Positions 1 to 16,129 of a stretch of DNA of 64,000 nucleotides are shown here, one piece after another. Both the position numbers and the translations under genes were made by a program. A model generated the notes under the pieces. That model did no database searches. It was not told where the DNA came from and was given only the letters and a program-made list of their open reading frames with translations. Location of the stretch: assembly GCA_958414825.1 (NCBI GenBank), contig CATYXQ010000004.1, forward strand, positions 8,667 through 72,666. The letters are read 5' to 3'. This DNA is from an uncultured Eubacteriales bacterium (GTDB taxonomy: Bacteria; Bacillota; Clostridia; Oscillospirales; CAG-272). How positions within the stretch are numbered: the first letter of the stretch is position 1; each line of letters begins with the position of its first letter.

Positions 1-1425
1 GCGTATTTCAAATGTCGTAAGCTCCGTGTCCATACCGCACAGCTTTGCGGCTCTTGCCACCATAACGGCGGCTTCCGCACGAGTAATCATTCCGTTTGGA
101 TTAAATTCGTTTTCGGATATGCCTTTTATAATGGCATAGGAATAGGCAGTGCTTACATAAGAGTAGAACCAATCATTTGAAGTAACGTCGCCGAAAATCG
201 CTGCATTTTTTAAGGGAAGTCCCAGACCTCTTACAATAATTGTGGCAAACTCGGCTCGTGTCATTGTGTTGTCAGGTTCAAATTTTGCTTCTGTTTTTCC
301 GTTTATGATATTTCGGATCGCAAGTGATTCGATTGCTGTTTGGTTGGCATGGCCTTGTATATCCGTAAAGGTCTTGTCGGGGTTTACAACGGGTATTTTT
401 GCGACATCTGCATGCTTATTGGCTAAACCCACAGATGATATATTATCTGTGAAAGTTTTTACGTCACTCATTCTGTATAGGGAGCTTTTATTTTCATTTG
501 CACGCTTGAGAGCGACAAGTGCATAAAAACATTGTTCGGTCGCCATTTGATTTGTATCTGTGTCGTCAGCGGTGTGCTTAAATCCCTTTCCGTTTATGTA
601 ATAGGAAAGAAGATTATCAAGCATCGTATTGCCATTTTTTACAAAACGAGTATCATCAATATCTATGCCAAGCTCGCATAATGCGACGATCATTTGGGCA
701 CTGCTCTCGGCGTTTTCGGTGTTCCAACATGAAAATCCGCCATCTGCATTTTGTTTTTGTGACATACAGTTGAGAGCTTTTTCCGTTGCCGATTTTACAT
801 CGGCGTTATCTTGATATTTTGAAAGCGCCTGCAAAGCCATAGCTGTTATATCGGGGTCGGCAACATCGCCCGATAATGCCCATCCGCCGTCCGAGGTTTG
901 TTTTTCAAGAATATGATTTATGTATATTTCTCTTGTTGCCTGTACTTTGGCGTTTATATTCTGCGGCATTTCGTAATTTACGCTGTCAAGCGCGATCAGT
1001 GCCCAAATAGAGCCGTTAATGCCTTGCCACACGGTCTTTTCATAATCTCCGAGAGGAGACAGAAGATTATATCCCGCAATATTTTCGGGATTTTTGCCGA
1101 TCGATGTGAGTGCGATAATTAGTCTTGAATATTCGGTATACTTTTTTTCGTGAAGTATACCTTTGCGTTTTACCACATATTCTGTGACTGCTTTGTAGTA
1201 TGCGTCAAAGTATTTCGTTGGAATATCGGCACCGCTTCGAGCAAGTCCTAAGATCAGCCATTCGCCGCCTACAGAGCCTACCTGTGGTGTGGGAACAGTT
1301 TTACTGAGGTAATTTCCCACGTCTGACACCAAAGTATTTACCATATTGTTATCTATAGCAAATATTTGCATCGAAAAGCCGAAAATCATTACAAAGCACA
1401 AGAATAATGATATTGGTTTTCTCAT
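1..1425 (-). CDS. Secreted alpha/alpha-toroid (prenyltransferase/terpene-cyclase-like repeat) protein with C-terminal SLH domains; the 3' end runs off the window
   Basis: Not in the ORF track because there is no stop in the window. My own translation starts at ATG 1425..1423, with RBS AAAGGAA just upstream. It gives a signal peptide (MRKPISLFLCFVMIFGFSMQIFA), then GGEWLILGLARSG and repeated DGGW / ADGGFS toroid-type motifs. SLH-type repeats follow (FTDIQGHANQTAIESLAIRNIINGK..., FGDVTSNDWFYSYVSTAYSYAIIKGISENEFNPNGMITRAEAAVMVAR). Confidence 0.75.
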   Translation of the reverse strand, partial: MRKPISLFLCFVMIFGFSMQIFAIDNNMVNTLVSDVGNYLSKTVPTPQVGSVGGEWLILGLARSGADIPTKYFDAYYKAVTEYVVKRKGILHEKKYTEYSRLIIALTSIGKNPENIAGYNLLSPLGDYEKTVWQGINGSIWALIALDSVNYEMPQNINAKVQATREIYINHILEKQTSDGGWALSGDVADPDITAMALQALSKYQDNADVKSATEKALNCMSQKQNADGGFSCWNTENAESSAQMIVALCELGIDIDDTRFVKNGNTMLDNLLSYYINGKGFKHTADDTDTNQMATEQCFYALVALKRANENKSSLYRMSDVKTFTDNISSVGLANKHADVAKIPVVNPDKTFTDIQGHANQTAIESLAIRNIINGKTEAKFEPDNTMTRAEFATIIVRGLGLPLKNAAIFGDVTSNDWFYSYVSTAYSYAIIKGISENEFNPNGMITRAEAAVMVARAAKLCGMDTELTTFEIR

Positions 1426-1440
1426 TGCCTGAATTCCTTT

Positions 1441-1488
1441 CCAAAACAGCAAAAGCGAGCAGTCAGATTTTGAGATCTGACTGTTCGC
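1441..1488 (-). terminator. Terminator-like hairpin between the giant surface-protein gene and the downstream toroid-protein gene
   Basis: The minus strand reads GCGAACAGTCAGAT-CTCAAA-ATCTGACTGCTCGC followed by TTTTGCTGTTTTGG. The RBS and ATG of the next ORF follow within about 15 nt. Confidence 0.5.
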
Positions 1489-1505
1489 AGTTTACCGTTA
1501 ACTGA

Positions 1506-4500
1506 TTATTTAGTTATATTTTCACAAAAGTGCATTAGAATTATTGCAACCTGAGCGCGTATTGTTGTAGCTTTAGGAGATAAAGTCGTATAGCTTGTAC
1601 CTGTTATAAGTTCGGTGGAGATCGCCCATTTAACGGCTTCAAGCGCCCAATCGCTTACATCATCTGCATCCGTATACTGTGAAATTTCAGTAGATGCGGT
1701 TATATCGTAGCCTTTCATTTTCGCATAGCGGAATATGACAGTAATCATTTGCTCGCGGGTGATATTATCATTGGGAGCAAATTCGGTTTCGCTGATACCG
1801 TTTACAATTCCGTTTTCCGATGCCCAAGCAACTGCGTTTTCGTACCATTCGCCGTCCGCAACATCGGTAAAGCTGTGCTTATATGACTTTCCTTGTGGAT
1901 TTTCAAGCCTGTAAAATACCGTCACAAGCATTGCTCTTGTCATGTTTCCTCCAGGCGCAAATTCTGTTTCAGATATTCCGTTAAACAGATTGTTTTCCAC
2001 GACATAGGTTACAGCAGTTTCATACCAAGAGCCTTTTTCAACATCTATAAACGTGATTTCTTCCTTTTTTACTTTCTCCCATTTAGCATAGAGGGTAAAG
2101 TTCTTCTTGACTTTACTGCTAAAATTGTACTCTTCGGTCAAATTTTTGTCTATAAACCATCCTACAAATGTGAAACCTTCCTTTGTCGGATCATCGGGTT
2201 CAGTTGCAGTATCATTTTTTTTGACGCTCTGTGTTTTAACCTTGCTTCCGCCGTTGGTTTCAAATTTGATGGTGTACATTGTAGTGGTCGTTCCCGAAGA
2301 AGAGTTTTCCCACTCCTCGGAGCCTTCCTCGTTTGTGTAGTCATCAGTATAATGAAAAATAATTCTATCTCTGTTTTTGAGTGTTTGCTCCGCTACACCG
2401 AGATTTGGATATGTTCCGTTTAACAAATACATCCAGCCTGAAAGAATACCGTTGTCAAACTCCGCAAGACCGTCTATTTCGGAGATGTAGTTTCCACCGT
2501 CATTTTCAAAGGAAAGTCCCGCTTCGGCAAGTGCTATTTCAAATACGTCAAGGACGGTTGCGCCGGAGTCTACGGTGTATGATTTCTGCGAGATCCATAC
2601 AGGGAGGTTCTTTTTATCGTTCTTGTACGTATGAACTTCGGCTTCACCGTGCTTGTCGTCGCCGTAGAGAGTAAATTTAACGGTAATTGTTTTGCCTGTA
2701 GACACAGGCGCACTTTCTCTTGTTACGGTCAGCGTAACCGTTTGAGTGTTTCCGCCGTCATCCTTGGCGGTTATTTCAAACGTGTTTTTACCGTAATCGA
2801 GATCATAGGAAGCGGCTACAGGCTCGCCGTCTACGGTAATATCAACATTCTGCGCTGCTACGGTGCTTATTGAAATATTGCCTATGCGGTAGCCAACACT
2901 TGCAGTGTAAGACGCGCCGTTCTTGGTGGTTGCTTCTCTTATGGTTCCGTTTGCATTGATCTTAATACCTTCAATAAGTTCATCGCTTTCTTCTGCACTG
3001 CTTGTAAGCTTTAAAAGAAATATTGCAGGCTCTTTGTCGCCATTTTGAACAATTACACGGACTAAGGTTTCCCCCTTTTCCTTTGTAACCTTAAATCCCT
3101 CGGCAGAGGCACCCGACTCAACTCTCTGATTGTTTACATAGATGTTATCATCATTCACCGTTCCGTTTACGGTAACTGAAACATATTTCATGTTGTCGAG
3201 ATTTACCGAATATACAGTCTGTCCGTTGGCAAAGTTGATTATCTTACTGTCGGCGCCGTCGGAGATGGTGACGCCTGTGGGTGCTTTTGTTTTTCCGACG
3301 GCGCTGTTTTGCGCAGTTGTGCGGACAACATATGTGACTTCGGTTGATTTTTCGGCAAACATGCCTGCGTAAATATTGGACGCTGTTGCCACCTTGATGT
3401 AATGGAATTCCATATTGCTTACATCAACGGGAATACCGTCCTCGTCAACCGCCCAAGCAACGTCAAATCCGTTTGCCTTGCTTGGTTTTTCTATATAAGA
3501 GTTTACATCCGTGACAGTTGTACCCGATATATTTGAAGCATAGTAATCGGTATATCCGAATTTAGCGCTTGCGGCATAGGATGCTGTTGATGAACTGTTG
3601 CCCATAATGCTTCCGAACTGACTTTCAAATAGAACGCCCGTAAAACTATATGTGTCTCTGAGCGCTGTATCATTCATATAGTAATATGCGGCACTCGGCC
3701 ATGCTTTTGCGGCATAGTTTATGGAATTGCCCTGATTGTCTGTCCAATATGCTTTACCATCATCGCCCTTGGTGTAGGTGATGGTGTAGTCCCATATAGC
3801 CTTATTCTCATAATGTTCCGATCCTGCAAGGGCGTACCAAGTTTTTCCGTCCTCGGACACATACACCTGTCCAAGTTCTGCCATGCTGTCGATGTTGGTT
3901 TCCGAACTGTTTCCGATAACATAGAAATCCATACCGTATTTATTATTGGGATTGTCAATTATCGGATCTTCGTAGTAATAGGTGATATATCCGCCGAAGT
4001 TGCCGAGGGATTTAAGGCCTCCGCCAAGTGTCTGTTCGGGGTATGTTCCATATCCGGCGTTGGTATATTGCGAGCCTATACAGAGATAGTCCACAACTTT
4101 GTCGGGGACGTCCATGGCGGACTTTTTCTTGTATCCGAATTTGTAGGTATTTGTAAAGCAGCCGTCTTCGCTCGTTACTGTAACGGTTGTCTGGCTTTTT
4201 CCAAAGGTCAGTGTGTAATTTCCGCTTTCATCGGGAGTTTGTACGGCAGCACCGATTTTAACGGTGCATCCGTCAGCGACAGTGTAAGTCAGAACAGGCG
4301 CCGTGGCACTGTTTTCGATAACGATCCAATATGAATATTTATCTTGGTTGAACGCTGGATACCAGTCACCGTTTGATGTTTTTGCAGTGAGTATTTTTGC
4401 ACAGGAGAGTGCTATTTTGTCAATCCAAACCTTGTATTCTGTAGGCGTGCTGTTTGCAAACCCGTTTTCACCATTTGCTATGTTTTTAACATATGTCGCG

Positions 4501-7500
4501 TCGTCAATCATCTGAATGATTATTACAGAAGCTCCTTCTGCGGGGGGCGCAATCGCTTCGGTAATTCCTCCGCCCTGTGCGATTTCCGTGTAAGTTTTAC
4601 CGTTGTCTGTGCTGTAACGAATATGTGCATAACTCGTCGAAGCGGTGAGATTTAATCTGAAGCTTTGGGCATCATCGTAAATGAATGTGCGATAGTAATA
4701 TGCGGATCCGCTTACACCAGAGCCAGAGGTAAGTACGCCGTTTTCATCGCATTTCTGCATCGTACCCTCGGTTACACCGTTGTAGGCTGTGGAAGAAAGA
4801 GCACGGTTGGTAGGGGTGAGAACTATACTTCTGTTCTTTATGAGTTTCGTAGTGTCGCGCGGTCTTGATACGTTAAAGGTGTATACAGTCGCTTTTTCGG
4901 AATTGTTTTTATCTGTAAGCGTGATCGTTATTACAGAACTGTCAAAGGGTTGATTGGGCAGAGTTGTGATTTTGCCGCTGTTTACTGTGATGCTTTGCTT
5001 ATTGCCATTAATATCGGTGTATTCGGCAACTGCCGTATATTTATTCGTGTCGTAAATCGTAGTTGCCTGCAGGGTAAGACTGCTCGTGGAGTAGGTTTTG
5101 AGCGGCAGGTCATATTCAAGCTTTGTGGGGACGAATGTCGAATCCTTTGTCCAAGCTCCGGATGTAAACGCTGTGGTCAGAAATTCAAGGCTTTCAAAAT
5201 AGGGTGTTTCCTCGCTGTCAACGACTACCTTAATACCGCCCTTTGTGCCATCGTTGTCGATTGCGGTGATAATTGTGCTTCCGACTCCTTTGGCAGTGAC
5301 AAGTCCGTTTTCATCAACCGATGCGATTGTTTCATCTGCACTTGACCAGCTGACTACAGTTTTACCCTCGGCGGCATATGCAGTGAGTTGAACTGTAGGA
5401 TTGGGAGTTTCAGTGCTTACGCTTAAATAAGTTTTTCCGTTATTTCCCTTGTTATCTTCAACTGCAACGCCGGTTACGGTGATCGTAGCCGTATCGGTGA
5501 GTTCTTCGTTTATATCTAACTCGAATGTCGCTGTAATCGTACCCGGACGGAAAAGATTAAACTTTATGGTGCCACCGTTTCCGGGATCGGCAGCAAGTTC
5601 ACCGACGCCCTCGGAAATATTATAACTCCAGATATTATGTCCGGATTTTCCTGCCGTGAGCGACATGGTTTTGGAAGTTTGACCGTCTTCGGAAAGGGCG
5701 ATCGTCTGTGTCTTTTGGGATTCATTGAGCAGATATCCCGTCGCTTTTACAGTTGTTTTTGCCGTTATTGAATTGTCAAGCTTTGATACAGCTGTGAAGT
5801 ACCAGTACGAGGTTGAAGAATAGGCGTCAACAATTACCTCGAACTCGCCCGTGGCGCCATCAAGAACTACGCTGCTTGTAGAGGTGGTTGTCCATGTGAC
5901 GGGTGTTTCCTCACCGTTTTCGTTATACGCGGTAAGTTTGAATTTGTCCCCCTTTTTGGTTATGATAATACCGTCAATTATGTCCTTGGCATCATGCTCT
6001 ATGGTGATTGATGTCGGGGCAGTGAACTTTTCTGTTACGGTCAGTGTAACGGTGTAAGCTTCACTGTCGGCAGTACCGTCGTTTGCAGTGAATACCAAAG
6101 TATATTCACCAGTTTCGTCTGGAGTAAAGGCATAATCTTCATTTGCCGAAACAGCATCGGTGCCATTTATGGCTACGGTATAGGTAAGAGTATCGATTTC
6201 GTCAATATCCGTGAAGATATCGGATAAATTAACGTTGTAATCCTCGCCGAGCATAATTGAGGCAGTATCGCTTGTCTTTGAAGCGGCGGGAACTGTATTG
6301 TTCTGCGGCTTCATAGGAACAATCACCGTATAAGTTTTTGCCTGCGACTGCGCCTCAACGGTGATTTTAAGTTCATTGTTTTTCCCGGCCGAGAGCGCAA
6401 ATGTAAGTGCTTTCCATGCTGAATCGCCCGAAGTGATCTTTTCTGATTTTCCGTTGCATTCGGCAGTAATAACAGCGTCGCTGTCTTCGGCAGCAGCCTT
6501 TACATAAACAAATCCTAAACTGTCATAAACGACAGAAGGTACCGAATATGAGGTAACGGAACTGTTGAAATTCGGGGTAAGCTTCAGCGCATTTGGATTA
6601 TTGTTAAGGTCGGTTATCGAAAGCGATGTGAGATCGCACGGATTTGACACAGGTATATCTTTGTCAACGATGATTTTGGTTAGCGACATTATAAGAGGTT
6701 CGCCTGCTGTGCCGTTTGGCATATAGGCGGTAAGATAATATGTACCTTCTGTTGCCGGAGCGGTAACGGTTACCTTTCCGTTTTCGTCCGTAACGGCATC
6801 TGTGATTATTGCAAGACTGTCTCCCGAGATGTTGTCTGTCATATCTACGAGAGCAAGCTGTGCACCTGAAACGGCTGAGCCGGCTGTGTGAACAGCGTCA
6901 GCGTCCTTATATAAATAACCGTATGAATATGGCAGGGAATTAAGTGTAAGCGAAGCTGATAGGCCGGGCGTCGCTGTAATTTCGGTTACAGCGTTTCCCT
7001 TATAATTAAACCATGCAAGCTCGTCCGACCAGTCTTCTGCGTAGATGAAAAATTCAACAGTGTCGTCGTCGTTGAGTTCCTGCGTAGTTTCGAGCGTACC
7101 GTTATATCCGCCGAAATTGCTTTCTGTTCCGTCGTTGGGATAAGCACCGTTAAGCACGAAACCGGCATATCTATCGGAATATCCGAAGCTCTTTGATGTA
7201 CTGCCGTAATCATTTAACGCAAGATAATTACCTGCGGCATCTTTTGTAAAACTATTGCCGTACTTTATTTTGTGAAGCGTTACCAACGCATCTAAAACGG
7301 ATACGCCGTCTACGCTGTCCTCAAATCCGTAGATTTCCGCAGTATTACTGTCTACTTTAATGCCAAACTGTGGAGCGCACAAAAAAGCACCGTCTGCCTG
7401 TGCTGTCAGATTTACTTCCACACTTTGAATATTTGTAACTGTATCTGCAAATACAGTTACAAGTGCTGCGCCCATTATCATAATAAGTAATAGTATGAGG

Positions 7501-7532
7501 CTAAAAATTTTTTTTGATTGCATTTTAGTCAT
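1506..7532 (-). CDS. Giant (2008 aa) secreted, SLH-anchored surface protein with DUF4430-like (transcobalamin beta-domain-like) modules, Ig-like repeats and a Listeria-Bacteroides-type repeat
   Basis: ORF track. N-terminal signal/TM segment (KKIFSLILLLIMIMGAALVTVFA). A DUF4430-type block lies near aa 1560-1680 (...ISEIDGLAEFDNGILSGWMYLLNGTYPNLGVAEQTLKNRDRIIFHYTDDY). A more divergent copy lies near aa 40-170 (VSVLDALVTLHK...GFVLNG...DDDTVEFFIY). There is a YTIKFETNGG...GFTFVGWF...FTLYAKW repeat. Three C-terminal SLH repeats are present (FIDVEKGSWYETAV..., FTDVADGEWYENAV..., YTDADDVSDWALEAV...). Confidence 0.9.
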   Translation of the reverse strand: MTKMQSKKIFSLILLLIMIMGAALVTVFADTVTNIQSVEVNLTAQADGAFLCAPQFGIKVDSNTAEIYGFEDSVDGVSVLDALVTLHKIKYGNSFTKDAAGNYLALNDYGSTSKSFGYSDRYAGFVLNGAYPNDGTESNFGGYNGTLETTQELNDDDTVEFFIYAEDWSDELAWFNYKGNAVTEITATPGLSASLTLNSLPYSYGYLYKDADAVHTAGSAVSGAQLALVDMTDNISGDSLAIITDAVTDENGKVTVTAPATEGTYYLTAYMPNGTAGEPLIMSLTKIIVDKDIPVSNPCDLTSLSITDLNNNPNALKLTPNFNSSVTSYSVPSVVYDSLGFVYVKAAAEDSDAVITAECNGKSEKITSGDSAWKALTFALSAGKNNELKITVEAQSQAKTYTVIVPMKPQNNTVPAASKTSDTASIMLGEDYNVNLSDIFTDIDEIDTLTYTVAINGTDAVSANEDYAFTPDETGEYTLVFTANDGTADSEAYTVTLTVTEKFTAPTSITIEHDAKDIIDGIIITKKGDKFKLTAYNENGEETPVTWTTTSTSSVVLDGATGEFEVIVDAYSSTSYWYFTAVSKLDNSITAKTTVKATGYLLNESQKTQTIALSEDGQTSKTMSLTAGKSGHNIWSYNISEGVGELAADPGNGGTIKFNLFRPGTITATFELDINEELTDTATITVTGVAVEDNKGNNGKTYLSVSTETPNPTVQLTAYAAEGKTVVSWSSADETIASVDENGLVTAKGVGSTIITAIDNDGTKGGIKVVVDSEETPYFESLEFLTTAFTSGAWTKDSTFVPTKLEYDLPLKTYSTSSLTLQATTIYDTNKYTAVAEYTDINGNKQSITVNSGKITTLPNQPFDSSVITITLTDKNNSEKATVYTFNVSRPRDTTKLIKNRSIVLTPTNRALSSTAYNGVTEGTMQKCDENGVLTSGSGVSGSAYYYRTFIYDDAQSFRLNLTASTSYAHIRYSTDNGKTYTEIAQGGGITEAIAPPAEGASVIIIQMIDDATYVKNIANGENGFANSTPTEYKVWIDKIALSCAKILTAKTSNGDWYPAFNQDKYSYWIVIENSATAPVLTYTVADGCTVKIGAAVQTPDESGNYTLTFGKSQTTVTVTSEDGCFTNTYKFGYKKKSAMDVPDKVVDYLCIGSQYTNAGYGTYPEQTLGGGLKSLGNFGGYITYYYEDPIIDNPNNKYGMDFYVIGNSSETNIDSMAELGQVYVSEDGKTWYALAGSEHYENKAIWDYTITYTKGDDGKAYWTDNQGNSINYAAKAWPSAAYYYMNDTALRDTYSFTGVLFESQFGSIMGNSSSTASYAASAKFGYTDYYASNISGTTVTDVNSYIEKPSKANGFDVAWAVDEDGIPVDVSNMEFHYIKVATASNIYAGMFAEKSTEVTYVVRTTAQNSAVGKTKAPTGVTISDGADSKIINFANGQTVYSVNLDNMKYVSVTVNGTVNDDNIYVNNQRVESGASAEGFKVTKEKGETLVRVIVQNGDKEPAIFLLKLTSSAEESDELIEGIKINANGTIREATTKNGASYTASVGYRIGNISISTVAAQNVDITVDGEPVAASYDLDYGKNTFEITAKDDGGNTQTVTLTVTRESAPVSTGKTITVKFTLYGDDKHGEAEVHTYKNDKKNLPVWISQKSYTVDSGATVLDVFEIALAEAGLSFENDGGNYISEIDGLAEFDNGILSGWMYLLNGTYPNLGVAEQTLKNRDRIIFHYTDDYTNEEGSEEWENSSSGTTTTMYTIKFETNGGSKVKTQSVKKNDTATEPDDPTKEGFTFVGWFIDKNLTEEYNFSSKVKKNFTLYAKWEKVKKEEITFIDVEKGSWYETAVTYVVENNLFNGISETEFAPGGNMTRAMLVTVFYRLENPQGKSYKHSFTDVADGEWYENAVAWASENGIVNGISETEFAPNDNITREQMITVIFRYAKMKGYDITASTEISQYTDADDVSDWALEAVKWAISTELITGTSYTTLSPKATTIRAQVAIILMHFCENITK

Positions 7533-7619
7533 TCCTTTCTGTATATTTTAGAGATAAATCAAGAATTCTTATTTCTATGCCAATACCGGGACATAGGCGC
7601 TCACCTCCAAAGCTCGGGA

Positions 7620-7659
7620 AAAAACAAAAAGCCGCAGCAATCAAACGATTACTACGGCA
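7620..7659 (-). terminator. Intrinsic terminator in the riboswitch expression platform (5' leader of the giant ORF)
   Basis: The minus strand reads GCCGTAGTAATCGTTTGATTGCTGCGGC (7-bp stem with one G-U pair) followed by TTTTTGTTTTTT. It lies between the riboswitch aptamer and the start codon at 7532. Confidence 0.5.
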
Positions 7660-7799
7660 GTTTTCCCGCATCACCACATTTTGTCGGCGCCAAAAAAGAC
7701 AACAACAAACAAAGCCCTGAGAATACCCAATTTTTCCGAGAGGTGTTCAGCGCCAAACAAAATTACCATTTCCTATGTCGATATAATGTCGGCACTTAC

Positions 7800-7975
7800 G
7801 GAAAAAGTATCAGAGCAGGTCTTTTGACTCGCATCATATAAAACGCGTGTATATCCTGCCTTCTCAGTTTCCCAATGACCGGCTTTCACCGACGGATATA
7901 CATTCTTTGATGCATACAGCGACTGGTATCGTCGTGGGTTCTCACCACGTTCCCTTTTCACCGATTGTACCTTGG
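7800..7975 (-). promoter_or_regulatory. Cobalamin (B12) riboswitch aptamer
   Basis: The reverse complement reads ...ATCGGTGAAAAGGGAACGTGGTGAGAACCCACGACGATACCAGTCGCTGTATGC...GGTGAAAGCCGGTCATTGGGAAACTGAGAAGGCAGG...GCGAGTCAAAAGACCTGCTC. This matches the conserved GGTG..AGGGAA..GGTG..AA..CC core. It also matches the B12 box (consensus rAGYCMGgAgaCCkGCc; here GAGTCAAAAGACCTGC at 7811-7829). Boundaries are approximate. Confidence 0.8.
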
Positions 7976-8401
7976 ATGAAATCCATTTGCAGTACAACCG
8001 ACACTCTGTTGTGATATATTATATTTTTTATGGTATACGACCGAATACTATATAAGGAGTCATCATATACCAATTCAATATTATATCACATATACCGGCG
8101 AAATGTAATACGCAAAACGACGATCTTTTTATAAAAAATGAAAATATTTCTGGTATACATTGGATTTCATATTCCATTTTCCCGTTCGATAGAGTATCAG
8201 CGGTCAGAGTTTTATTATCTTATCTATAATGACCCGTTACACACGCCGATCTGATACATCAAATCCGAAGTCGCTTGAACTGCATGTGCTTGGAGGCGCG
8301 GACGGAAAAGTAGCACGAGTACAGGATATTCTGACTCGCGGCGCAAATGCGTATCTTTCGGACGTATTGATCGAACTGTTTTCGGTAAAGTAATAAAAAA
8401 T

Positions 8402-8444
8402 CCCCGGAGTGATTTCAAAAAAATCGCTTCGGGGTCTTTGGTTA
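8402..8444 (-). terminator. Intrinsic terminator downstream of the hemolysin-III family gene
   Basis: The minus strand has a CCCCGAAGCGAT / ATCACTCCGGGG hairpin followed by ATTTTTTATTAC, immediately after the stop at 8455. Confidence 0.6.
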
Positions 8445-8454
8445 TCAGTATGGT

Positions 8455-9108
8455 TTATAGTACATACAGCATAACGGAAAAATAGTGGCAGATGGAACCG
8501 GCGAGGACAAACAGATGCCAAATCGAATGCATATATCGGATTTTTTTCATCGCATAAAATACAATGCCGACCGTATAGCACAATCCCCCGGCAAGCAACA
8601 GGATAAATCCAGCGGGTGCGAGTGCGTTTAGTACGCTTTTGCTGGCAAAAATAATGCACCAGCCCATCGCTACATACAGAATCATTTCTATTTTCCGGAA
8701 TTTATTCAGCATAATGGCGTCAAATACGATGCCGATAATCGCGAGCCCCCATAAGATGCCGAAGAGTGTCCAGCCAAGCGGACCGCGCAGCGTAACCAGG
8801 AGATACGGGGTATAGGTGCCGGCGATCAGAAAAAAGATAGTGACATGATCGAAGATGCGAAAAACATGCTTTGCTTTCTTGGGAACGAGCGCATGGTAGA
8901 GCGTGGACATTGTGTACAGGATAATGAGCGCGGCGCCGAACAGGGAAGCCGCAACGATTGCATAGGCGTCGGCGGAACGCGCGGCACGAACGACCATTGT
9001 GACCAGTGCGGCGACAGAAAGCCCAGCGCCGATACCGTGCGTTACCGCGCTGAATATTTCTTCGCCGAGCGTGTAGCGCCTGCCGTTTTTTCTTAAATTC
9101 TCAGACAT
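8455..9108 (-). CDS. Hemolysin III / PAQR family integral membrane protein
   Basis: ORF track. Seven predicted TM segments with family motifs EEIFSAVTHGIG, YHALV...FDHVTIFFLIAGTYTPY and HSIWHLFVLAGSICHY. Confidence 0.9.
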   Translation of the reverse strand: MSENLRKNGRRYTLGEEIFSAVTHGIGAGLSVAALVTMVVRAARSADAYAIVAASLFGAALIILYTMSTLYHALVPKKAKHVFRIFDHVTIFFLIAGTYTPYLLVTLRGPLGWTLFGILWGLAIIGIVFDAIMLNKFRKIEMILYVAMGWCIIFASKSVLNALAPAGFILLLAGGLCYTVGIVFYAMKKIRYMHSIWHLFVLAGSICHYFSVMLYVL

Positions 9109-9307
9109 AGCATCACTCCTAAACGATTGAAATTGCAGTTTAAACCGTGCAGGCCGATTGTTTTGACCGGCAGATAAAAAATAAGCCGAGCTGAAATTGG
9201 CTTCGGCAATCTATATACAATATAAAAATATACAAAATATGATAAAATTATTTTATCATATTTTTGTCCTGGTGTCAATGAATTTTCATTTCAACGATTT
9301 ACGGCGG

Positions 9308-9336
9308 TTGACATTTTTTGCGGCGCGGTTTATAAT
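9308..9336 (+). promoter_or_regulatory. Consensus sigma-A type promoter upstream of the SEDS gene
   Basis: TTGACA (9308-9313), a 17-nt spacer, then TATAAT (9331-9336). Both hexamers match the consensus exactly. Confidence 0.6.
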
Positions 9337-9419
9337 AAAAACGGCGCATTTACATGGTTTTAGTCGTGCAATGCGTAAAAAGCGGCGCGCATAGAATCTG
9401 CGTGCGGAAAGAGGCGCGT

Positions 9420-10547
9420 GTGAAAGTCTTTGCGGTTACCTGGTATGAAAAACTGCGAAAACTGGATTATATCATTATTTTTGCGGTGCTTTCGCTGACC
9501 GGTATGAGTCTTGTGACACTGGCCGGTGCGGCAAACGATTTCGGCGTGAAATATTTTTACATACAGTTTGCCGCTGCGTTTCTGGGCTTTGTGACGATGG
9601 CGGTAATGTCTACGATAGATTATGAAGAGATTGCGGACAAGCTGTCTGTTGTCCTGTTCGCTTTCAGTATTTTTCTTTTGGTGCTGACCCTTTTGATCGG
9701 CACCGGCGACGGCAATAGAAGCTGGATCAGCTATGATTGGATGCCGGTGAGCATCCAGCCGTCCGAATTTATCAAGGTTTTGTACATCATTACATTTTCC
9801 AAGCATCTGAGTCTGCTGAAAGGAAAGATCAATCACCCGCTGTCTCTTTTGAAGCTCGGCATACATGCAGGGGCAATTATCGGATTGATTTTGATGCAGG
9901 GCGATTTGGGTTCTGCGCTTGTATATATGTTTTTGACTTTGGTTATGCTTTACTGCGCCGGACTCAGCTTGTGGTATTTTCTTGGAGCGGCCGTACTCTT
10001 TACCGCGCTTTCTCCTGTCCTATGGGGGCTTTTAAAAACCTATCAAAAAGAACGGATTATTGCCGGCTTTTGGCCGGAGAGCGACCCGACGGATAAAGGG
10101 TTTCAGGCATTGATGAGCAAAAACGCTATTGCGGCCGGCGGTTTTTTCGGTACGGGTTTTTCAGGCGGCACAGAGTACCAGAAAGTACCGTTTGCACACA
10201 CCGATTTTATCTTTGCAATTACCAGTGAGAAATTCGGCTTTTTCGGAGCGCTGTTCGTAATTGCCATGCTTTGTGTGCTGGTCGTTCGGATTTTAATATT
10301 GGCTCGAAAAATGCAGGGGAGTTATGCTTGCTATATGTGTGTCGGCGCTGCCTCGATCATTATTGCGCAGTCGGTAGAAAATATCGGCATGTGCTTAGCC
10401 AAACTGCCGGTAGTGGGGATTACGCTTCCTTTTATGAGCTATGGCGGCTCTTCCATGCTGGCTTCGTGGTGCCTGATCGGTTTGATTCAGAGCATCAGTG
10501 CGCATAGAGGAAAGTATTTTTTTGAGCGTCAGATAAACGACGCCTGA
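9420..10547 (+). CDS. SEDS family peptidoglycan polymerase (FtsW/RodA/SpoVE)
   Basis: ORF track lists 9354..10547. I prefer the in-frame GTG at 9420, which has GGAAAGAGG 6 nt upstream. Motifs: SEFIKVLYIITFSKHL, GDLGSALVY, HTDFIFAITSEKFGFFGA, LPFMSYGGSSMLA. Confidence 0.85.
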   Translation: MKVFAVTWYEKLRKLDYIIIFAVLSLTGMSLVTLAGAANDFGVKYFYIQFAAAFLGFVTMAVMSTIDYEEIADKLSVVLFAFSIFLLVLTLLIGTGDGNRSWISYDWMPVSIQPSEFIKVLYIITFSKHLSLLKGKINHPLSLLKLGIHAGAIIGLILMQGDLGSALVYMFLTLVMLYCAGLSLWYFLGAAVLFTALSPVLWGLLKTYQKERIIAGFWPESDPTDKGFQALMSKNAIAAGGFFGTGFSGGTEYQKVPFAHTDFIFAITSEKFGFFGALFVIAMLCVLVVRILILARKMQGSYACYMCVGAASIIIAQSVENIGMCLAKLPVVGITLPFMSYGGSSMLASWCLIGLIQSISAHRGKYFFERQINDA

Positions 10548-10577
10548 GTTTATTGTTCGCCAGGACAGAAGATTTAT

Positions 10578-10617
10578 GAAAGAAAGCATCGCCGTTTGAC
10601 GATGCTTTCTTTCTTTT
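10578..10617. terminator. Bidirectional intrinsic terminator between convergent genes
   Basis: A perfect 14-bp stem GAAAGAAAGCATCG / CGATGCTTTCTTTC with an 8-nt loop. It is followed by TTTT on the plus strand and preceded by an A-rich run. Confidence 0.7.
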
Positions 10618-10652
10618 GCAGTCAAATTTTGTAAACGGATATTGTGTATGAA

Positions 10653-10889
10653 TCAGAGACCGAGCACATCTGCAATAATGTCATCGATATGAAAAGCGCT
10701 GACATTGCCTTCATTGATTTCCTGCATAAAGTCTTGCAACATATTCAGGTTGTCAGAGATGTCCTCTACTGTTTTGATGATTTCACCTGAGCTTTCATCG
10801 GTAAACTGAAATCCGTAGACTGTGCGTTTGATATTTTGTTCATCTGTGAGGACGGATTCGATAATTTTGCATTTTGTCATAATGTCCAT
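10653..10889 (-). CDS. Small conserved hypothetical protein; paralogous to prophage ORF 16488..16715
   Basis: ORF track lists 10653..10937; the start is uncertain (internal Met at 10889 or 10880). It aligns by eye with the 16488 ORF: TVYGFQF versus TVFGIDA, and a C-terminal HIDDIIADVLG versus HLQDIIEDALV. Confidence 0.5.
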   Translation of the reverse strand: MDIMTKCKIIESVLTDEQNIKRTVYGFQFTDESSGEIIKTVEDISDNLNMLQDFMQEINEGNVSAFHIDDIIADVLGL

Positions 10890-11235
10890 TTTCCCAATGT
10901 CTTTCGCAGAATTTGAACAGGTACAATTTTTTAACATTCACCTGACACTTGAATTATACCTTGCAAACAGATGGTTTGTCAACCACTTCCGTTCGGATAT
11001 ATTTACATAAATTTACATTAAATACCATATTTCGACTGTAAAATATCAGATAAATCAAGATTTTCGGGAAAACCGTTCGGCTTTTGGTAAAATAAAAACT
11101 GAATTCAAAAAATACGACAAAAATATACAATAAAAACGAGCGCCGCTGAATAAAAAGCAGAACGGAATCAAAACAAAGAAGAACTTTATTTGAACTGAGA
11201 AATGCCGGTAATATTTTTAAATTTGCATTCAGATA

Positions 11236-11264
11236 TTGAAAAAAATTCCAAACTATTATATAAT
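11236..11264 (+). promoter_or_regulatory. Sigma-A type promoter upstream of htpG
   Basis: TTGAAA (11236-11241), a 17-nt spacer, then TATAAT (11259-11264), about 40 nt before the htpG start. Confidence 0.45.
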
Positions 11265-11305
11265 ATTCGGCAGGATAATCTTACAAAGGATGAGGATGTG
11301 ATAGT

Positions 11306-13162
11306 ATGGCAGAACAGGCAAAAAAAGAAAAAGGCGGCATTTCGGTAGAAACGCAGCATATTTTTCCGATCATTAAACGCTGGCTTTATTCGGACAAGGA
11401 GATTTTTCTTCGGGAAATTGTATCTAATGCTTCCGATGCGATCACAAAGCTCGACAGGCTGATTTCACTGGGCGAGGCAAAGGATATTGAATTTGACGGA
11501 CGCATTGATGTTCGTGTCAGCAAAAAAGCGCATACAATTACGGTTTCGGACAATGGCATCGGTATGGATGCGGAAGAGGTTAAAAAATATATCGGAAACA
11601 TTGCGCTTTCCGGCGCGCTTGAATTTATTCAGAAATACGAGGGTCAGAGCGAGGGAGCCGGCGACGGTATTATCGGTCATTTTGGCCTCGGCTTTTATTC
11701 GGCTTTCATGGTCAGCGACCGCGTGGAGGTAATCAGCCGCTCGTACAAAGGCGGAGACGGCGTACAGTGGATTTGCGATGAGTCCGGCGAATATGAAATG
11801 ACGGTTCCGTATGATGCGGCTACACGTGGAACAACCGTGATTATGCATATTAACGCCGAGGGCGAGGAGTATCTTGAAGCATATAAGCTCCGCTCTATTT
11901 TGGAAAAATACTGTGCGTTTATGCCGGTCGAGATTTACTTTGAAGACGAGGATGCGGAATCTAAAGACGGGGAAGATGCGAATGAAAAAACGCCGTTGAA
12001 TGATACGCATCCGCTTTGGCAGAAGAATCCTGCCGAATGTACCGATGAGGAATATAAGGCGTTTTATAAGAAAGTTTTCTCCGATTTCAACGAGCCTTTG
12101 TTTTGGTTGCATATCAAGGCCGATTATCCGCTGAACTTTAAGGGGATTCTGTATTTTCCGAAACTCACGCATGAGTTTGCCAATATGGAGGGACAGGTAA
12201 AGCTCTATTATAATCAGGTATTTGTTGCGGACAATATTAAAGAGGTGATTCCCGAATATCTGCTTATGCTGCGCGGGGTGCTCGACTGTCCTGAGCTTCC
12301 GCTGAATGTGTCCCGCAGTTATTTGCAAAACAGCGGTTACGTTTCCAAGATTTCAGCGCATATTGTGAAAAAAGTTGCCGATAAGCTGCTTGCGATGTTT
12401 AAAAACGATCGCGCGGCGTATGAGAAAATGTGGGATTCCATTCGTACATTCTGCGAATATGCGTCGCTTTGCGACCGCAAGTTTTATGACCGCGCTAAAA
12501 ATGCGCTGCTTCTGGACATTGTGCACGGCGGTTATATGACTTTGCCGGAATATCTGGAGGCCGCTAAAACAACAAACGAGGGCGTCGTTTATTATACCTC
12601 GGACGAGCAGCAGCAGGCGCAGTATATCGCGATGTTTGAAGCAAAGGAAATAAAAGTCGTTAAATTTGACCGCATGATTGATACGCAGTATTTGCAGATG
12701 CTCGAAAGCATAGATGAAAAAGTGCATTTTCGGCGTGTGGATTCGGAACTTGCCGATGCGCTGCGCGGCGAGGGGGAGGCCGAGCATTCGGAGATGCTGG
12801 AAAAGCTGTTCCGCGAGGCTTCGGGCAATGAAAAACTGACCGTGAAATGCGAACGTCTTTCTGATGCGGAAATCCCCGCGATGCTGAGTGTGAATGAGGA
12901 AAGCCGCAGAATGGAAGATATGATGAAGTTATACGCTGCGGGCGGTATGGATATAAACAACGCTTATACGGCTGAAAGTACGCTGATTGTGAATATGTCC
13001 AACCGGCTGATTGAGCGTCTTGCGGCGGGAAAATATACAGACAGCGCGCTGATTGCCAAACAGATTTACAGTCTTGCGCTGCTCAGTCATCGGCGGCTTG
13101 GCGAGGAGGAAATGAAAGCGTTTTTGCAGTCCAGTTATGCGGTGCTTTCAACGCTCGGATAA
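11306..13162 (+). CDS. htpG: Molecular chaperone HtpG (Hsp90 family)
   Basis: ORF track. N-terminal GHKL ATPase motifs (LYSDKEIFLREIVSNASDA, DNGIGM, GHFGLGFYSAF) and the typical length (618 aa). Confidence 0.95.
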   Translation: MAEQAKKEKGGISVETQHIFPIIKRWLYSDKEIFLREIVSNASDAITKLDRLISLGEAKDIEFDGRIDVRVSKKAHTITVSDNGIGMDAEEVKKYIGNIALSGALEFIQKYEGQSEGAGDGIIGHFGLGFYSAFMVSDRVEVISRSYKGGDGVQWICDESGEYEMTVPYDAATRGTTVIMHINAEGEEYLEAYKLRSILEKYCAFMPVEIYFEDEDAESKDGEDANEKTPLNDTHPLWQKNPAECTDEEYKAFYKKVFSDFNEPLFWLHIKADYPLNFKGILYFPKLTHEFANMEGQVKLYYNQVFVADNIKEVIPEYLLMLRGVLDCPELPLNVSRSYLQNSGYVSKISAHIVKKVADKLLAMFKNDRAAYEKMWDSIRTFCEYASLCDRKFYDRAKNALLLDIVHGGYMTLPEYLEAAKTTNEGVVYYTSDEQQQAQYIAMFEAKEIKVVKFDRMIDTQYLQMLESIDEKVHFRRVDSELADALRGEGEAEHSEMLEKLFREASGNEKLTVKCERLSDAEIPAMLSVNEESRRMEDMMKLYAAGGMDINNAYTAESTLIVNMSNRLIERLAAGKYTDSALIAKQIYSLALLSHRRLGEEEMKAFLQSSYAVLSTLG

Positions 13163-14112
13163 TGGCCGGCGGCGAATTTTTAAAAAATGCACTGAATAAT
13201 ATAGAACGTTATTATAATCAGGAAGCCTCCGTATGCGAGCGTGTCAGTGCGAATATCAGCGAAGCGGCGGAAATTACAGCCGCACGGATTGCGCGTATGC
13301 TGCGCGGGAAAAAATTTTTCTCCTTGGAGGATTTTCGTGAAGAACTTTCAGCAGCGCCGTTTGTAAACACAGTTGTTTCCGATCTTGTCATTGAAGAAAA
13401 CCGCACGATTGCGGAAGCCAAGCTTTCCACGGATGAGGGCGTTTATATGGCCGAATTTTGCAGCAAACTGACCTATGCGCTTCGTACTGCGGCTAAGTTC
13501 CGTCCGGCGCCCGCGCTGTTTTTGGATCGCAGTGGAGACGGAGAAAAAAACGGCGGTGTTTCCTTTGTTACCGGTGAATTGTTTTCCGATGTGTTTTCAC
13601 TGTTTCAGAAGAAATTGCCGGATCTGAAAGCAACGCCTGCTCGTTCGTTTGTCGATGTCTGCGAAGCGGTCGCGTCCGGTGAATCGGAATATTGCATTTT
13701 GCCGCTTGAAAACAGCCGCGATGGTATATTGCTCACATTTCTGTCGATGATGGAGCGGTACGAACTCTTGATTGCGCGTGTCGCCGAAGTAAGTGGAGCA
13801 GAGGGCGCTTTAACCAGATACGCCTTGCTTTGTCAGGATTTTCGCAGTATTATAGACAGTACCGGGAATCAGTATGTCGCGATCCGTTTGTCCGGATTGG
13901 ATGAAACGCTGCTGCCGAAATTGTTCGCCGCTGTACCTGTGCTCGGCGTGCGACTGATTAAAACGGTATCTGTGCCGTTGCATTATACGGACGGATATGC
14001 GCATATTTGCACATTCGGGGGCGGGGAAGCGTCGTTGTTTTCGCTTTTGCTGTTTTTGAATCTGATTCGTGCGGATTATACGCTGAAAGGAATTTATGAA
14101 TCGATAAGCTGA
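13162..14112 (+). CDS. Prephenate-dehydratase-like (PDT plus ACT-like) domain protein, divergent
   Basis: ORF track. The central block FVDVCEAVASGESEYCILPLENSRDGILLTFL resembles the PDT motif (..f.aV..g.adygvvPiENs.eGsV). The C-terminal part is ACT-like. The start overlaps the htpG stop (TAATG). The functional call is tentative. Confidence 0.45.
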   Translation: MAGGEFLKNALNNIERYYNQEASVCERVSANISEAAEITAARIARMLRGKKFFSLEDFREELSAAPFVNTVVSDLVIEENRTIAEAKLSTDEGVYMAEFCSKLTYALRTAAKFRPAPALFLDRSGDGEKNGGVSFVTGELFSDVFSLFQKKLPDLKATPARSFVDVCEAVASGESEYCILPLENSRDGILLTFLSMMERYELLIARVAEVSGAEGALTRYALLCQDFRSIIDSTGNQYVAIRLSGLDETLLPKLFAAVPVLGVRLIKTVSVPLHYTDGYAHICTFGGGEASLFSLLLFLNLIRADYTLKGIYESIS

Positions 14113-14119
14113 GGATACT

Positions 14120-14368
14120 ATGGAAAAAGAGATTGTATATACGCCTCGCGGCGTGTGTTCGAGAAAGATACATGCTGTGATCGAAGACGGCGTTATCAAA
14201 GAAGTTCATTTTATCGGCGGATGCAGCGGGAATACGCAGGGGATCAGCGCTTTGGTTCAGGGGATGCCGGTGGATGAAGCGATCCGGCGGCTGCGTGGAA
14301 TCAATTGCGGCGGCAGAGGGACTTCCTGCCCGGATCAGCTTGCGCGTGCTCTGGACAAAGAACGGTAA
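14120..14368 (+). CDS. TSCPD-domain protein (TIGR03905-like 4-Cys family)
   Basis: ORF track. YTPRGVCSRKIHAVIEDGVIKEVHFIGGCSGNTQGISALVQG...INCGGRGTSCPDQLARAL is the characteristic pattern of this small family. Confidence 0.85.
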   Translation: MEKEIVYTPRGVCSRKIHAVIEDGVIKEVHFIGGCSGNTQGISALVQGMPVDEAIRRLRGINCGGRGTSCPDQLARALDKER

Positions 14369-14395
14369 TTTTTTATAGGGGAGAAAACGAATACT

Positions 14396-16129
14396 ATGGC
14401 AGAAAAGTATATGGATTCGTATAGACAATGGCTGGAAAGCTCGGTTTTGGATGAAGAAAGCCGCCGGGAACTGCTTGCATTGCGGGATGATCCTTCCGAG
14501 ATCGAGATGCGCTTTTTGGGATATCTTGAGTTTGGAACCGGCGGTTTGCGTGGAACGATGGGAGCCGGCACCAACAAAATGAATGTTTATACCGTGGCGC
14601 ATGCGACTCAGGGCATGGCGAAGATGATTTTGCTTGAGGGAAAAGACGCTGCGGCGCGCGGCGTGGTTATCGCATATGACAGCCGCAATCATTCCGAGCG
14701 GTTTGCGCGCACTGCGGCGGAGGTGCTTTCGGCAAATGGGATACGGACGTATATTTTTGACGGTGTGCGTCCGACGCCCGAACTTTCCTTTGCAATCCGT
14801 GAACTCGGATGTATTGCCGGAATCAATATCACTGCATCGCACAATCCCAAGGAGTATAACGGATATAAAGCTTATTGGGAGGACGGCGCGCAGCTGCCGC
14901 CGGAACATGCTGATGTGATTTCTGCCAAGACCCGGGAACTTGATATTTTCAAAGATGTGAGGCGTGCGGATTTTGATAAGGCTGTGTCTGCCGGGGATAT
15001 ACAAATCATCGGCGCCGAGATCGATGCGAAATATCTTGAAAACGTATTGGCGCAAAGAGTAAACAAAGAGGCGATTCCGGTCGTGGCCGAGACGCTCCGT
15101 GTCGTATATACGCCTTTGCACGGCGCTGGGTATCGCCTGGTGCCAGAAGCGCTTCGCCGGAGCGGACTCAAATATCTGTATACGGTCGATGAGCAAATGG
15201 TGTTGGACGGCAATTTCCCGACTGTGAAAAAGCCGAATCCGGAACTGCCGGATGCGTTTACGCTTGGTATTCGTCTGGCGGACGCGGTGCAAAGCGATCT
15301 GATTGTCGCCACCGACCCGGACAGCGACCGTATGGGAGTGATGACCCGCGCGGCAGACGGTAAATTCGCCGCCATTACGGGCAATCAGATGGCTGCGCTG
15401 TTGTTGGATTATATTTTCACAGCACTGCGCGAGGGGGATGGAATTCCCGCTGACGGTTATGCTGTCAAAACCATTGTATCTACCGAACTTGCCACCGCGA
15501 TTTGCCGTGCAAACGGCGTAAAGCTGTATAATGTGCTGACTGGCTTCAAATTTATCGGTGAGGTGATTAAAAATCACGAAGCCAAGGGGAAAGGCACGTT
15601 TTTGTTTGGTTTTGAGGAGAGTTACGGCTATCTCAAAGGGACGTATGCGCGTGATAAGGATGCGGTTTGTGCCGCTATGCTTGCCGTGGAAATGGCGGCT
15701 TACTATAAAGCGAAAAATATGACGCTGTATGATGCGTTGCAGAGTATTTATGCGCGTTACGGCTACTATGGCGAGAAGTCCATGGATGTTTACATGGAGG
15801 GGCTTGACGGTATTGCGCGCCGCACCGCTACAATGCAGGCGCTTCGCCAGACTCCGCCGCTGGAAATCGGCGGTTTCGCGGTTGCGTTTATCGGCGACTA
15901 TCAAGCGGAGACGATCACTTATCTTTCCGACGGCCGCAGTGAACCGACGGGACTCCCGAAATCGGATGTGCTGTATTACGGTCTGGAAAACGGTGATGTT
16001 GTCGTTATTCGTCCGTCCGGTACAGAGCCGAAAATTAAGATTTATTATCTTGCCGGTGCAGCGGATGCAAAAACGCTTGATGAAAAGCTGCGCGCCTATG
16101 TCGCGCAGACCGACCGGCTTGTAAAATAA
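14396..16129 (+). CDS. Phosphoglucomutase / phosphomannomutase (alpha-D-phosphohexomutase family)
   Basis: ORF track. Active-site loop TASHNPKEYNGYK, a metal-binding DPDSDR, and the typical length (577 aa). Confidence 0.9.
   Translation: MAEKYMDSYRQWLESSVLDEESRRELLALRDDPSEIEMRFLGYLEFGTGGLRGTMGAGTNKMNVYTVAHATQGMAKMILLEGKDAAARGVVIAYDSRNHSERFARTAAEVLSANGIRTYIFDGVRPTPELSFAIRELGCIAGINITASHNPKEYNGYKAYWEDGAQLPPEHADVISAKTRELDIFKDVRRADFDKAVSAGDIQIIGAEIDAKYLENVLAQRVNKEAIPVVAETLRVVYTPLHGAGYRLVPEALRRSGLKYLYTVDEQMVLDGNFPTVKKPNPELPDAFTLGIRLADAVQSDLIVATDPDSDRMGVMTRAADGKFAAITGNQMAALLLDYIFTALREGDGIPADGYAVKTIVSTELATAICRANGVKLYNVLTGFKFIGEVIKNHEAKGKGTFLFGFEESYGYLKGTYARDKDAVCAAMLAVEMAAYYKAKNMTLYDALQSIYARYGYYGEKSMDVYMEGLDGIARRTATMQALRQTPPLEIGGFAVAFIGDYQAETITYLSDGRSEPTGLPKSDVLYYGLENGDVVVIRPSGTEPKIKIYYLAGAADAKTLDEKLRAYVAQTDRLVK

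Follow-up and report, generated by a model that had tools for sequence, protein, structure and literature searches.

In this work we have investigated the beginning of a 64,000-nucleotide stretch of DNA (the window) from an uncultured Eubacteriales bacterium (contig CATYXQ010000004.1), where a cobalamin riboswitch on the minus strand precedes the genes for a giant secreted protein and a secreted alpha/alpha-toroid protein, the latter cut by the window edge. An earlier note on this DNA, made from the letters alone, had read the two products as a device for capturing vitamin B12 at the cell surface. Judging from profile comparisons, structure models and related contigs, the segment from position 1 to about 8110 on the minus strand is probably the promoter-proximal two-fifths of a five-gene operon for cobamide scavenging and import in a gut bacterium of Clostridia/Oscillospiraceae-like affinity, with the genes for an energy-coupling factor (ECF) importer lying beyond the edge. 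The features of the segment, with residue numbers in amino acids (aa) where they apply, are as follows.

8080-8109, minus strand: sigma-70-like promoter candidate (ATTACA, 18 nucleotides, TG-TATAAT), about 60 nucleotides upstream of the riboswitch
7797-8020, minus strand: cobalamin riboswitch aptamer, RF00174 (58.3 bits, E 7e-12, gathering score 31.5; all 189 positions of the model)
7619-7658, minus strand: intrinsic terminator of the expression platform, a 12-bp GC-rich hairpin and U tract (free energy, dG, -18.5 kcal/mol)
1506-7532, minus strand: gene for the giant secreted surface protein, anchored by S-layer homology (SLH) repeats (2008 aa from the first ATG)
6633-7436, minus strand: N-terminal recurring module, aa 33-300, a divergent DUF4430-like core followed by an immunoglobulin (Ig)-like domain (hhalign)
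7020-7310, minus strand: the divergent DUF4430-like core itself, aa ~75-171 (hhalign)
4146-6632, minus strand: stalk of Ig-like and cadherin-like beta-sandwich domains, aa 301-1129 (Pfam)
3246-4145, minus strand: BtuH-type domain, aa ~1130-1429, predicted from homology to bind vitamin B12 (AlphaFold2, Foldseek and profile)
2622-3245, minus strand: Ig-like/cadherin-like spacer, aa 1430-1637 (weak matches: BiPBP_C 1430-1499, Glucodextran_B 1553-1606)
2301-2621, minus strand: C-terminal DUF4430 domain (transcobalamin-beta-like SLBB), aa 1638-1744 (PF14478)
2082-2276, minus strand: Flg_new (Listeria-Bacteroides) repeat, aa 1753-1817 (E 8e-20; internalin B B-repeat structures)
1533-2054, minus strand: three SLH repeats, the cell-wall anchor, aa ~1827-2000 (PF00395, 98 bits, 3 stretches)
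1460-1483, minus strand: intergenic stem-loop between the giant and toroid genes (9-bp stem CAGTCAGAT...ATCTGACTG, weak U tail)
1-1425, minus strand: secreted alpha/alpha-toroid protein with SLH repeats, first 475 of 536 codons, cut by the window edge

The leader had been described as a B12 riboswitch with a terminator-type expression platform, and both parts of this description held; the match to RF00174 covers the full model at 58.3 bits. The B12 box and the GGTG/AGGGAA/GGTGAGAACCC core can be read directly in the leader, and the aptamer extends 45 nucleotides beyond position 7975, where the earlier note had ended. The terminator hairpin (7658-7631 on the minus strand, dG -18.5 kcal/mol) stands downstream of the aptamer and ahead of the start codon, and its tail is TTTTTGTTTTTT; riboswitch and terminator together occupy 7619-8020 on the minus strand. 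At high intracellular cobamide the riboswitch would terminate transcription in the leader, and at low cobamide transcription would read through into the operon. Leader terminators of similar strength (dG -19 to -21) are present in four related loci, L004, L007, L010 and L012. The stems of these four are nearly identical to one another (CAGCTGTGGTAAT...ATTGCCGCAG); the stem in the window differs from them, with a similar strength. The promoter candidate agrees with the consensus at 10 of 12 positions and has an extended -10 TG; it is a consensus match only, and promoter-like sites in the region are not more numerous than in shuffled sequence.

The first gene was said in the same note to encode a 2008-aa secreted protein with Ig-like domains and three SLH repeats, which agrees with what Pfam found on this open reading frame: DUF4430, Flg_new, three SLH, three Cadherin-like, Big_2 and Big_9 matches. 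Translation probably starts at Met4, giving 2005 aa, because AAAGGA stands 9 nucleotides upstream of Met4 and the 99% identical relative P0125 is 2005 aa long. The N-terminus is a hydrophobic signal-like sequence, MQSKKIFSLILLLIMIMGAALVTVFA/DT; like the other signal peptides and membrane anchors in this work, it was judged by eye. Along the stalk, Pfam placed Big_9 at residues 412-498, Big_2 at 713-768 and Cadherin-like repeats which include 1059-1131. The spacer block that follows the central domain is conserved in the family consensus, and the SLH repeats match the SLH structures of B. anthracis Sap (E 4e-11).

The central domain of the giant protein (aa ~1130-1429) gave nothing credible in Pfam, even at E <= 10, and nothing relevant in NCBIfam. 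Its AlphaFold2 model has a predicted local distance difference test score (pLDDT) of 86.6, and when it was compared with the PDB by Foldseek there were only three credible matches, all of them B12-binding lipoproteins of B. thetaiotaomicron: 8BLW chain B (BtuG1, E 1.4e-15) and 7BIZ chains A and B (BtuH2 with B12, E ~5e-14 to 1e-13). TMq was 0.60-0.62 for BtuG1 and BtuH2, and the next match had an E of 0.08. The same two proteins were found when the family profile of the domain was run against PDB sequences, with BtuG1 residues 392-656 (8blw_B) at E 2.2e-46 and the C-terminal domain of BtuH2 (7biz_A) at E 7.7e-35, at 23-25% identity. On these comparisons the homology of the central domain to BtuH-type B12 binders is firm, and from it we infer that the domain binds B12. 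For the mapping of the BtuH2 contacts, the residue number was taken as the PDB chain index plus 100, which was checked on H476 and Y510/W511. The nucleotide-loop contacts Q333 and N399 of BtuH2 have their counterparts in Q1155 and N1208 of the giant protein; both are near-invariant across 174 family members. Among the modules of the giant protein, it is this one whose relatives have the best experimental backing for B12 binding.

An exhaustive search found the BtuH-type domain in 898 representative clusters (50% identity), nearly always within very large proteins, and in 15 of 38 sampled members it shares a polypeptide with DUF4430. A widespread domain for which neither Pfam nor NCBIfam has a model is thus exposed, and its carriers are named only "S-layer homology domain-containing protein"; the databases call the family of the giant protein either this or "hypothetical protein".

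The giant protein had also been credited with one clear and one divergent DUF4430-like module. Both are present, and with the BtuH-type domain, which had been missed, the binder-type modules number three in total. The clear one is the C-terminal DUF4430 domain, whose Pfam core at residues 1657-1729 scored 51.8 bits against a cutoff of 23.8 (E 1.2e-13); the family hidden Markov model gave 150 bits. The N-terminal module has no match in Pfam even at E <= 10 and is beyond the reach of the Pfam DUF4430 model. In hhalign, an alignment of 111 N-terminal modules matched one of 181 DUF4430 domains over aa ~75-171 with a probability of 96.5% and an E of 8.5e-10, and this profile match supports the view that the module is a divergent homologue of DUF4430, with the SGW motif replaced and one loop inserted. 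The module stands at the N-termini of many family members, in some of them in tandem. It is about 265 aa long, with five copies in P0194 (1630 aa) and two in P0208 and in P0234-P0244. When the N-terminal 171 aa were used in a word-indexed homology search, four short fragments were all that came back, and the result was uninformative; the family came from the full-length search.

The giant gene and the toroid gene are 80 nucleotides apart, with a stem-loop in the gap (1460-1483, minus strand). This may work as a partial terminator or as an element which stabilizes the mRNA, and by attenuating or stabilizing the transcript it could set the ratio of both proteins.

The second gene had been described as encoding a secreted alpha/alpha-toroid protein with SLH repeats, and the AlphaFold2 model (pLDDT 91.8, predicted template modelling score 0.90) is unambiguously an alpha/alpha toroid. 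The Pfam matches to prenyltransferase and squalene-cyclase families on this reading frame all stayed below their gathering scores (E ~1e-4). The full-length protein has 536 aa (P0001) and carries three SLH repeats (108.8 bits, 3 stretches) which again match the Sap structures; of these repeats the first and the greater part of the second lie inside the window, and the missing 61 codons were read in the related contig L013. Residues 1-23 are signal-like, the toroid extends from residue 24 to about 322 (window 460-1356), and the SLH region starts at about residue 350. In Foldseek, transcobalamin ranked alongside class II terpene cyclases (E 5e-5 to 1e-3); the transcobalamin structures (2V3N, 7QBE, 4ZRP, 8IXU) stood at E 1e-4 to 1e-3 and had the highest TM-scores among the top-ranked matches with E <= 1e-3 (TMq 0.56-0.60). 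Kinship of the modelled toroid with transcobalamin thus appears at the level of the fold only, and membership of that family is not established. The suggestion that the protein works like the alpha domain of transcobalamin follows from its fold, its extracellular location and the DUF4430 gene which is invariably its neighbour.

What lies behind the toroid gene? Neither of the two proteins of the window led to a contig when looked up by exact sequence, and the operon was completed through the relatives P0071, P0003, P0006 and P0125. Contig L013 (ENA ERZ28563729 scaffold_354) is 99.6% identical to window positions 1-16256, shares with it the upstream genes HlyIII, FtsW/RodA, HtpG and PGM, and continues past the point where the window stops. 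Directly after the toroid gene stand gene 3 (L013 17721-18377), for a DUF4430 protein of 218 aa with a hydrophobic stretch at its N-terminus as membrane anchor, gene 4, for a 295-aa CbiQ/EcfT protein, and gene 5, for an 891-aa EcfA-EcfA'-S fusion in which two ABC_tran ATPase domains are followed at the C-terminus by an ECF S component; these are followed by a convergent gene. The earlier remark that the link to uptake was unknown therefore reflects only where the window happens to end. For the S domain the match is chain A of 6FNP, which is CbrT, with E 5.5e-10 in L013 and 3e-11 in L001, the next-best S component having an E of 0.1. In L001 the two ATPase halves are above the NCBIfam cutoffs for TIGR04520 (ECF_ATPase_1, 361.7 against 315) and TIGR04521 (ECF_ATPase_2, 344.8 against 330).

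The form of this ECF module is unusual: EcfA, EcfA' and a CbrT-like S domain are joined in one chain of about 890 aa (L013 19230-21905; L001 14744-17419). Extra hydrophobic segments stand between the second ATPase and the S domain, and in L007 the match to the fused protein is in two separate pieces.

We compared ten related operon types (L001-3, L004, L005, L006, L007, L008, L009, L010/L011, L012 and L013/L014). Wherever downstream DNA was available, the order toroid-SLH, small DUF4430, EcfT, EcfAA'-S was kept; the L005 locus stops short of EcfT. Their toroid proteins are 43-99% identical to that of the window, and RF00174 lies upstream of the operon in all eight types for which upstream DNA was at hand (L001, L004, L005, L006, L007, L010, L012 and L013). 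A contig scan gave six loci, all from metagenome-assembled genomes labelled Clostridia, Eubacteriales, Oscillospiraceae or Lachnospiraceae. The conservation of both the gene order and the riboswitch implies that the unit under selection is the riboswitch with the surface proteins and a dedicated ECF-CbrT-like importer.

The small membrane-anchored DUF4430 gene follows the toroid gene in all ten types, and the large upstream protein is far more variable. Could the giant protein's own DUF4430 domain be the partner of the toroid, as the earlier note had supposed? Since the small DUF4430 gene is the most conserved and the large protein varies, this domain is not the obvious partner. The surface-capture proposal holds in that genes under a riboswitch encode cobalamin-binder-type modules anchored to the wall.

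The first-gene proteins of the relatives keep a DUF4430 domain beside the SLH anchor and exchange their other modules. Those of L010 and L012 combine a BtuH-like domain with DUF4430. The large SLH protein of L004 (5864-10549) has an N-terminal DUF4465 domain (E 3e-34) in the place of the BtuH-type one, together with DUF4430; DUF4465 is the B12-binding jelly-roll of BtuJ, a fold separate from BtuH (PMC13398666). The large SLH protein of L005 (5420-10546) has a toroid (~8630-9451) and then DUF4430 in one chain, and the first-gene protein of L007 is a 356-aa DUF4430-like protein only. Some family members also match PF01122. The swapping of B12-binder folds under a conserved B12 riboswitch argues for selection for cobamide capture and not for adhesion. 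The fused toroid-DUF4430 chain of L005, which lies upstream of a separate toroid-SLH gene, is an unsplit transcobalamin-like arrangement.

We consider it probable that the overall function of this locus is the riboswitch-controlled scavenging and import of cobamides. The SLH repeats would tether the giant protein and the toroid protein to the secondary cell-wall polymer, and the giant protein may capture cobamides at up to three sites along its Ig-like stalk, away from the wall. Together, the toroid and one of the DUF4430 domains would enclose the cobamide, in the manner of the alpha and beta domains of transcobalamin; a split transcobalamin-like pair of this kind is a reasonable reading and has a precedent. 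The likeliest partner of the toroid would be the membrane-tethered product of gene 3, since it is the most conserved neighbour and is placed between wall and membrane. The CbrT-like S domain would then receive the ligand, and the dedicated fused ECF module would import it. How the cobamide travels between these parts we can suggest only tentatively: the giant protein may hand it to the heterodimer of toroid and membrane-tethered DUF4430 protein, which would act as the extracytoplasmic binding partner of the ECF transporter. By analogy, and with the same reserve, the locus could be a Gram-positive counterpart of the Bacteroides cobamide relay in concatenated form, with three candidate sites which stand at different distances from the wall and belong to two unrelated folds, the BtuH type and the SLBB/DUF4430 type.

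Several points weigh against this reading. We know of no ECF transporters that work with extracytoplasmic binding proteins, and the class is defined by doing without them. The transporter genes are outside the window and were read in a near-identical contig from another sample. The residues of BtuH2 which form hydrogen bonds to the corrin ring (H476, Y510, W511 and W577) are replaced both in the window protein and in the Clostridial family, so the corrin-facing side of the BtuH-like pocket must differ. For the toroid, Foldseek favours transcobalamin no more than class II terpene cyclases, Pfam gave no PF01122 match, and the family profile retrieved no transcobalamin from the PDB sequences but only the QW-type repeats of squalene-hopene, drimenyl-diphosphate and other terpene cyclases. 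A DUF4430 profile run against the PDB sequences retrieved no solved structure, and the kinship of DUF4430 with transcobalamin therefore rests on PMC1796856 and on scattered PF01122 matches in relatives. Lastly, a preprint on the Lsa1836-1840 operon of L. sakei (bioRxiv 10.1101/864751) describes the same list of parts and a deletion mutant with reduced haem uptake, and this claim means that ligand specificity should not be assumed in such operons.

Does the system import haem or another tetrapyrrole and not cobamides? We find this very improbable in spite of the L. sakei operon, because the operon has a cobalamin riboswitch in front of it, both here and in each of the eight relatives with upstream DNA, CbrT is the only significant PDB match of the S domain, and the giant protein has a BtuH-type domain where a related operon has a BtuJ-type DUF4465. 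It is a different matter whether the surface proteins deliver their ligand at all. They may mainly sequester or store cobamides at the cell surface, as a competitive sponge or reservoir with no direct hand-over to a transporter. Three candidate binding modules on one 2005-aa protein, anchored in the wall far from the membrane, would suit such a role, and a preprint (bioRxiv 10.1101/2025.07.01.662609) proposes an "extracellular vitamin reservoir" of this kind for BtuJ1 on Bacteroides vesicles. A delivery chain is the better fit to the strict operon linkage with an ECF-CbrT-like importer and a membrane-tethered DUF4430 protein in every relative examined, and we regard storage as the main role as unlikely; the two are not mutually exclusive and may coexist.

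Perhaps the giant protein is chiefly an adhesin or a structural protein associated with the S-layer; its B12-binder-like domains would then be degenerate or repurposed, for example for glycans, and its only tie to the transporter would be a common transcript. Most of its length consists of repeats typical of adhesins (Ig-like, cadherin-like and Flg_new), the corrin contacts of BtuH2 are not kept, and the first-gene protein is highly variable among the operons. This variation, however, is a swap of B12-binder-type modules (BtuH-like, DUF4465, toroid, DUF4430) and not their loss, with at least one DUF4430 always present, and the nucleotide-loop glutamine and asparagine are near-invariant in the 174 members under a conserved riboswitch control, which makes an adhesin quite improbable. 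The toroid protein as an extracellular enzyme, akin to terpene cyclases or prenyltransferases, is the hardest of these accounts to credit. Class II terpene cyclases are among its best matches both by sequence and by Foldseek, and a single DxDD-like tetrapeptide, DIDD, occurs at residue 255. The first aspartate of this motif is lost in the relatives (family consensus ISxDD; SLDD in L001), and there is no DDxxD motif in the protein. Moreover, the signal-like N-terminus and the SLH repeats place the protein outside the cell, away from isoprenoid diphosphate substrates, its gene always lies between DUF4430 genes under a B12 riboswitch, and it is transcobalamin that has the highest TM-scores among the top-ranked matches. 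We have rejected the enzyme on the grounds that the tetrapeptide is not conserved and the protein is outside the cell.

The preferred reading, cobamide scavenging and import, has forerunners, and the earlier view that a binder of this kind was not recognisable as characterised does not hold for the concept, which has precedents from 2007 (PMC1796856), 2019 (bioRxiv 10.1101/864751) and 2022 (PMC8941943). Burroughs, Balaji, Iyer and Aravind defined the transcobalamin-like SLBB clade (DUF4430) in 2007 and predicted a role in B12 scavenging (PMC1796856). In their work, as here, an alpha/alpha toroid and Ig-fold domains often accompany the SLBB domains, either within one chain or from a neighbouring gene, and the operons often have a second SLBB paralogue with genes for a CbiO-like ATPase and a CbiQ-like protein. 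That study was purely computational and mentions neither riboswitch, SLH, BtuH-type and DUF4465 domains nor a CbrT-type S component, and none of its examples has the architecture seen here, in which about 2000 aa combine a BtuH-type domain with two SLBB-type modules. The L. sakei operon, reported in 2019, encodes secreted alpha-like (Lsa1840) and beta-like (Lsa1839) proteins together with an S component, a fused EcfA-A' and EcfT, and in the preprint (bioRxiv 10.1101/864751) the toroid/alpha-like and DUF4430/beta-like proteins are modelled as a split transcobalamin heterodimer which feeds the ECF transporter. It differs in the haem uptake reported for it, in an S component separate from the ATPases and in having no giant multi-module protein, and its text mentions neither SLH anchors nor a BtuH-type domain; the likeness is one of parts list. 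Transcobalamin, intrinsic factor and haptocorrin of eukaryotes combine an alpha/alpha toroid with a small beta domain (SLBB/DUF4430-like), and both folds are encoded here, though on separate polypeptides and with a toroid that lacks a sequence-level match.

BtuH2 (BT1956) and the C-terminus of BtuG1 (PMC8941943; 7BIZ, 8BLW) are homologous to the central domain of the giant protein, and in BtuH2, too, the domain follows Ig-like domains in a surface-exposed protein from a B12-riboswitch-controlled uptake locus. BtuH sits in the outer membrane as a lipoprotein and acts together with the TonB-dependent BtuB-BtuG, whereas here the domain belongs to an SLH-anchored Clostridial polypeptide accompanied by DUF4430 and an ECF importer, and of the six polar contacts that BtuH2 makes with B12, four are not kept in the window protein. 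Putnam et al. noted in passing BtuH homologues in three Firmicutes species, one of which, that of E. siraeum, lies near an ECF-like cobamide transporter (PMC8941943). The Bacteroides relay from BtuJ, BtuH and BtuG to BtuB (PMC13616437) is alike in function, with several surface binders of unrelated folds under riboswitch control that feed a membrane transporter; there the binders are lipid-anchored on the outer membrane, and here they are concatenated or anchored to the wall by SLH repeats, with an ECF importer as the endpoint. The importer of the present operon invites comparison with ECF-CbrT of L. delbrueckii. CbrT in that organism is a stand-alone S component on a shared ECF module. The S domain of the fifth gene (L001, L013) matches CbrT specifically, and EcfT and two EcfA domains are present as well, but the paper on the L. 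delbrueckii transporter (PMC5997447; 6FNP) mentions no operon or accessory proteins, whereas here S is fused to EcfA-EcfA' in a dedicated module whose operon has three genes for extracellular proteins.

In full-text searches of the literature we found no paper on SLH-anchored multi-module B12 binders or on an operon of this type. The parts are known and the Gram-positive assembly is new, which makes it an unstudied combination of known kinds and not a new kind. In the gut, cobamides are a keystone nutrient and a contested one, and to our knowledge the machinery for their capture is well studied in Bacteroidota only. A 2026 review described the BtuH and BtuJ homologues of Gram-positives/Firmicutes without an outer membrane as "entirely uncharacterized" (PMC13616437). 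To the question which that review raises, the locus and its relatives offer a concrete answer at the level of sequence: the binder modules sit in SLH-anchored giants, in a B12-riboswitch operon with a split transcobalamin-like pair and an ECF-CbrT-type importer. If the toroid and DUF4430 do deliver the ligand to the S component, this would be an exception to the rule of ECF transporters without binding proteins.

Some neighbouring genes of the related loci may be mentioned here. In L001 (3190-3834) and L004 (5302-5874) a gene for a protein of about 200 aa with two homing endonuclease associated repeats (HNH_repeat, PF18780) comes after the riboswitch and before the giant gene; the window has no such gene. 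A gene for a transporter of the MATE family (MatE) lies inside the operon in L001 (12562-13887) and just upstream of the riboswitch in L010 (208-1545), with no obvious link to cobamide import. In L001 the riboswitch is immediately preceded by a gene for a 372-aa MetE-like protein (1510-2628; Meth_synt_2, of the cobalamin-independent methionine synthase family). Elsewhere in the window, and unrelated to the operon, there is a full-length transfer-messenger RNA (tmRNA) gene at 52655-53021 on the minus strand (RF00023, 167 bits).

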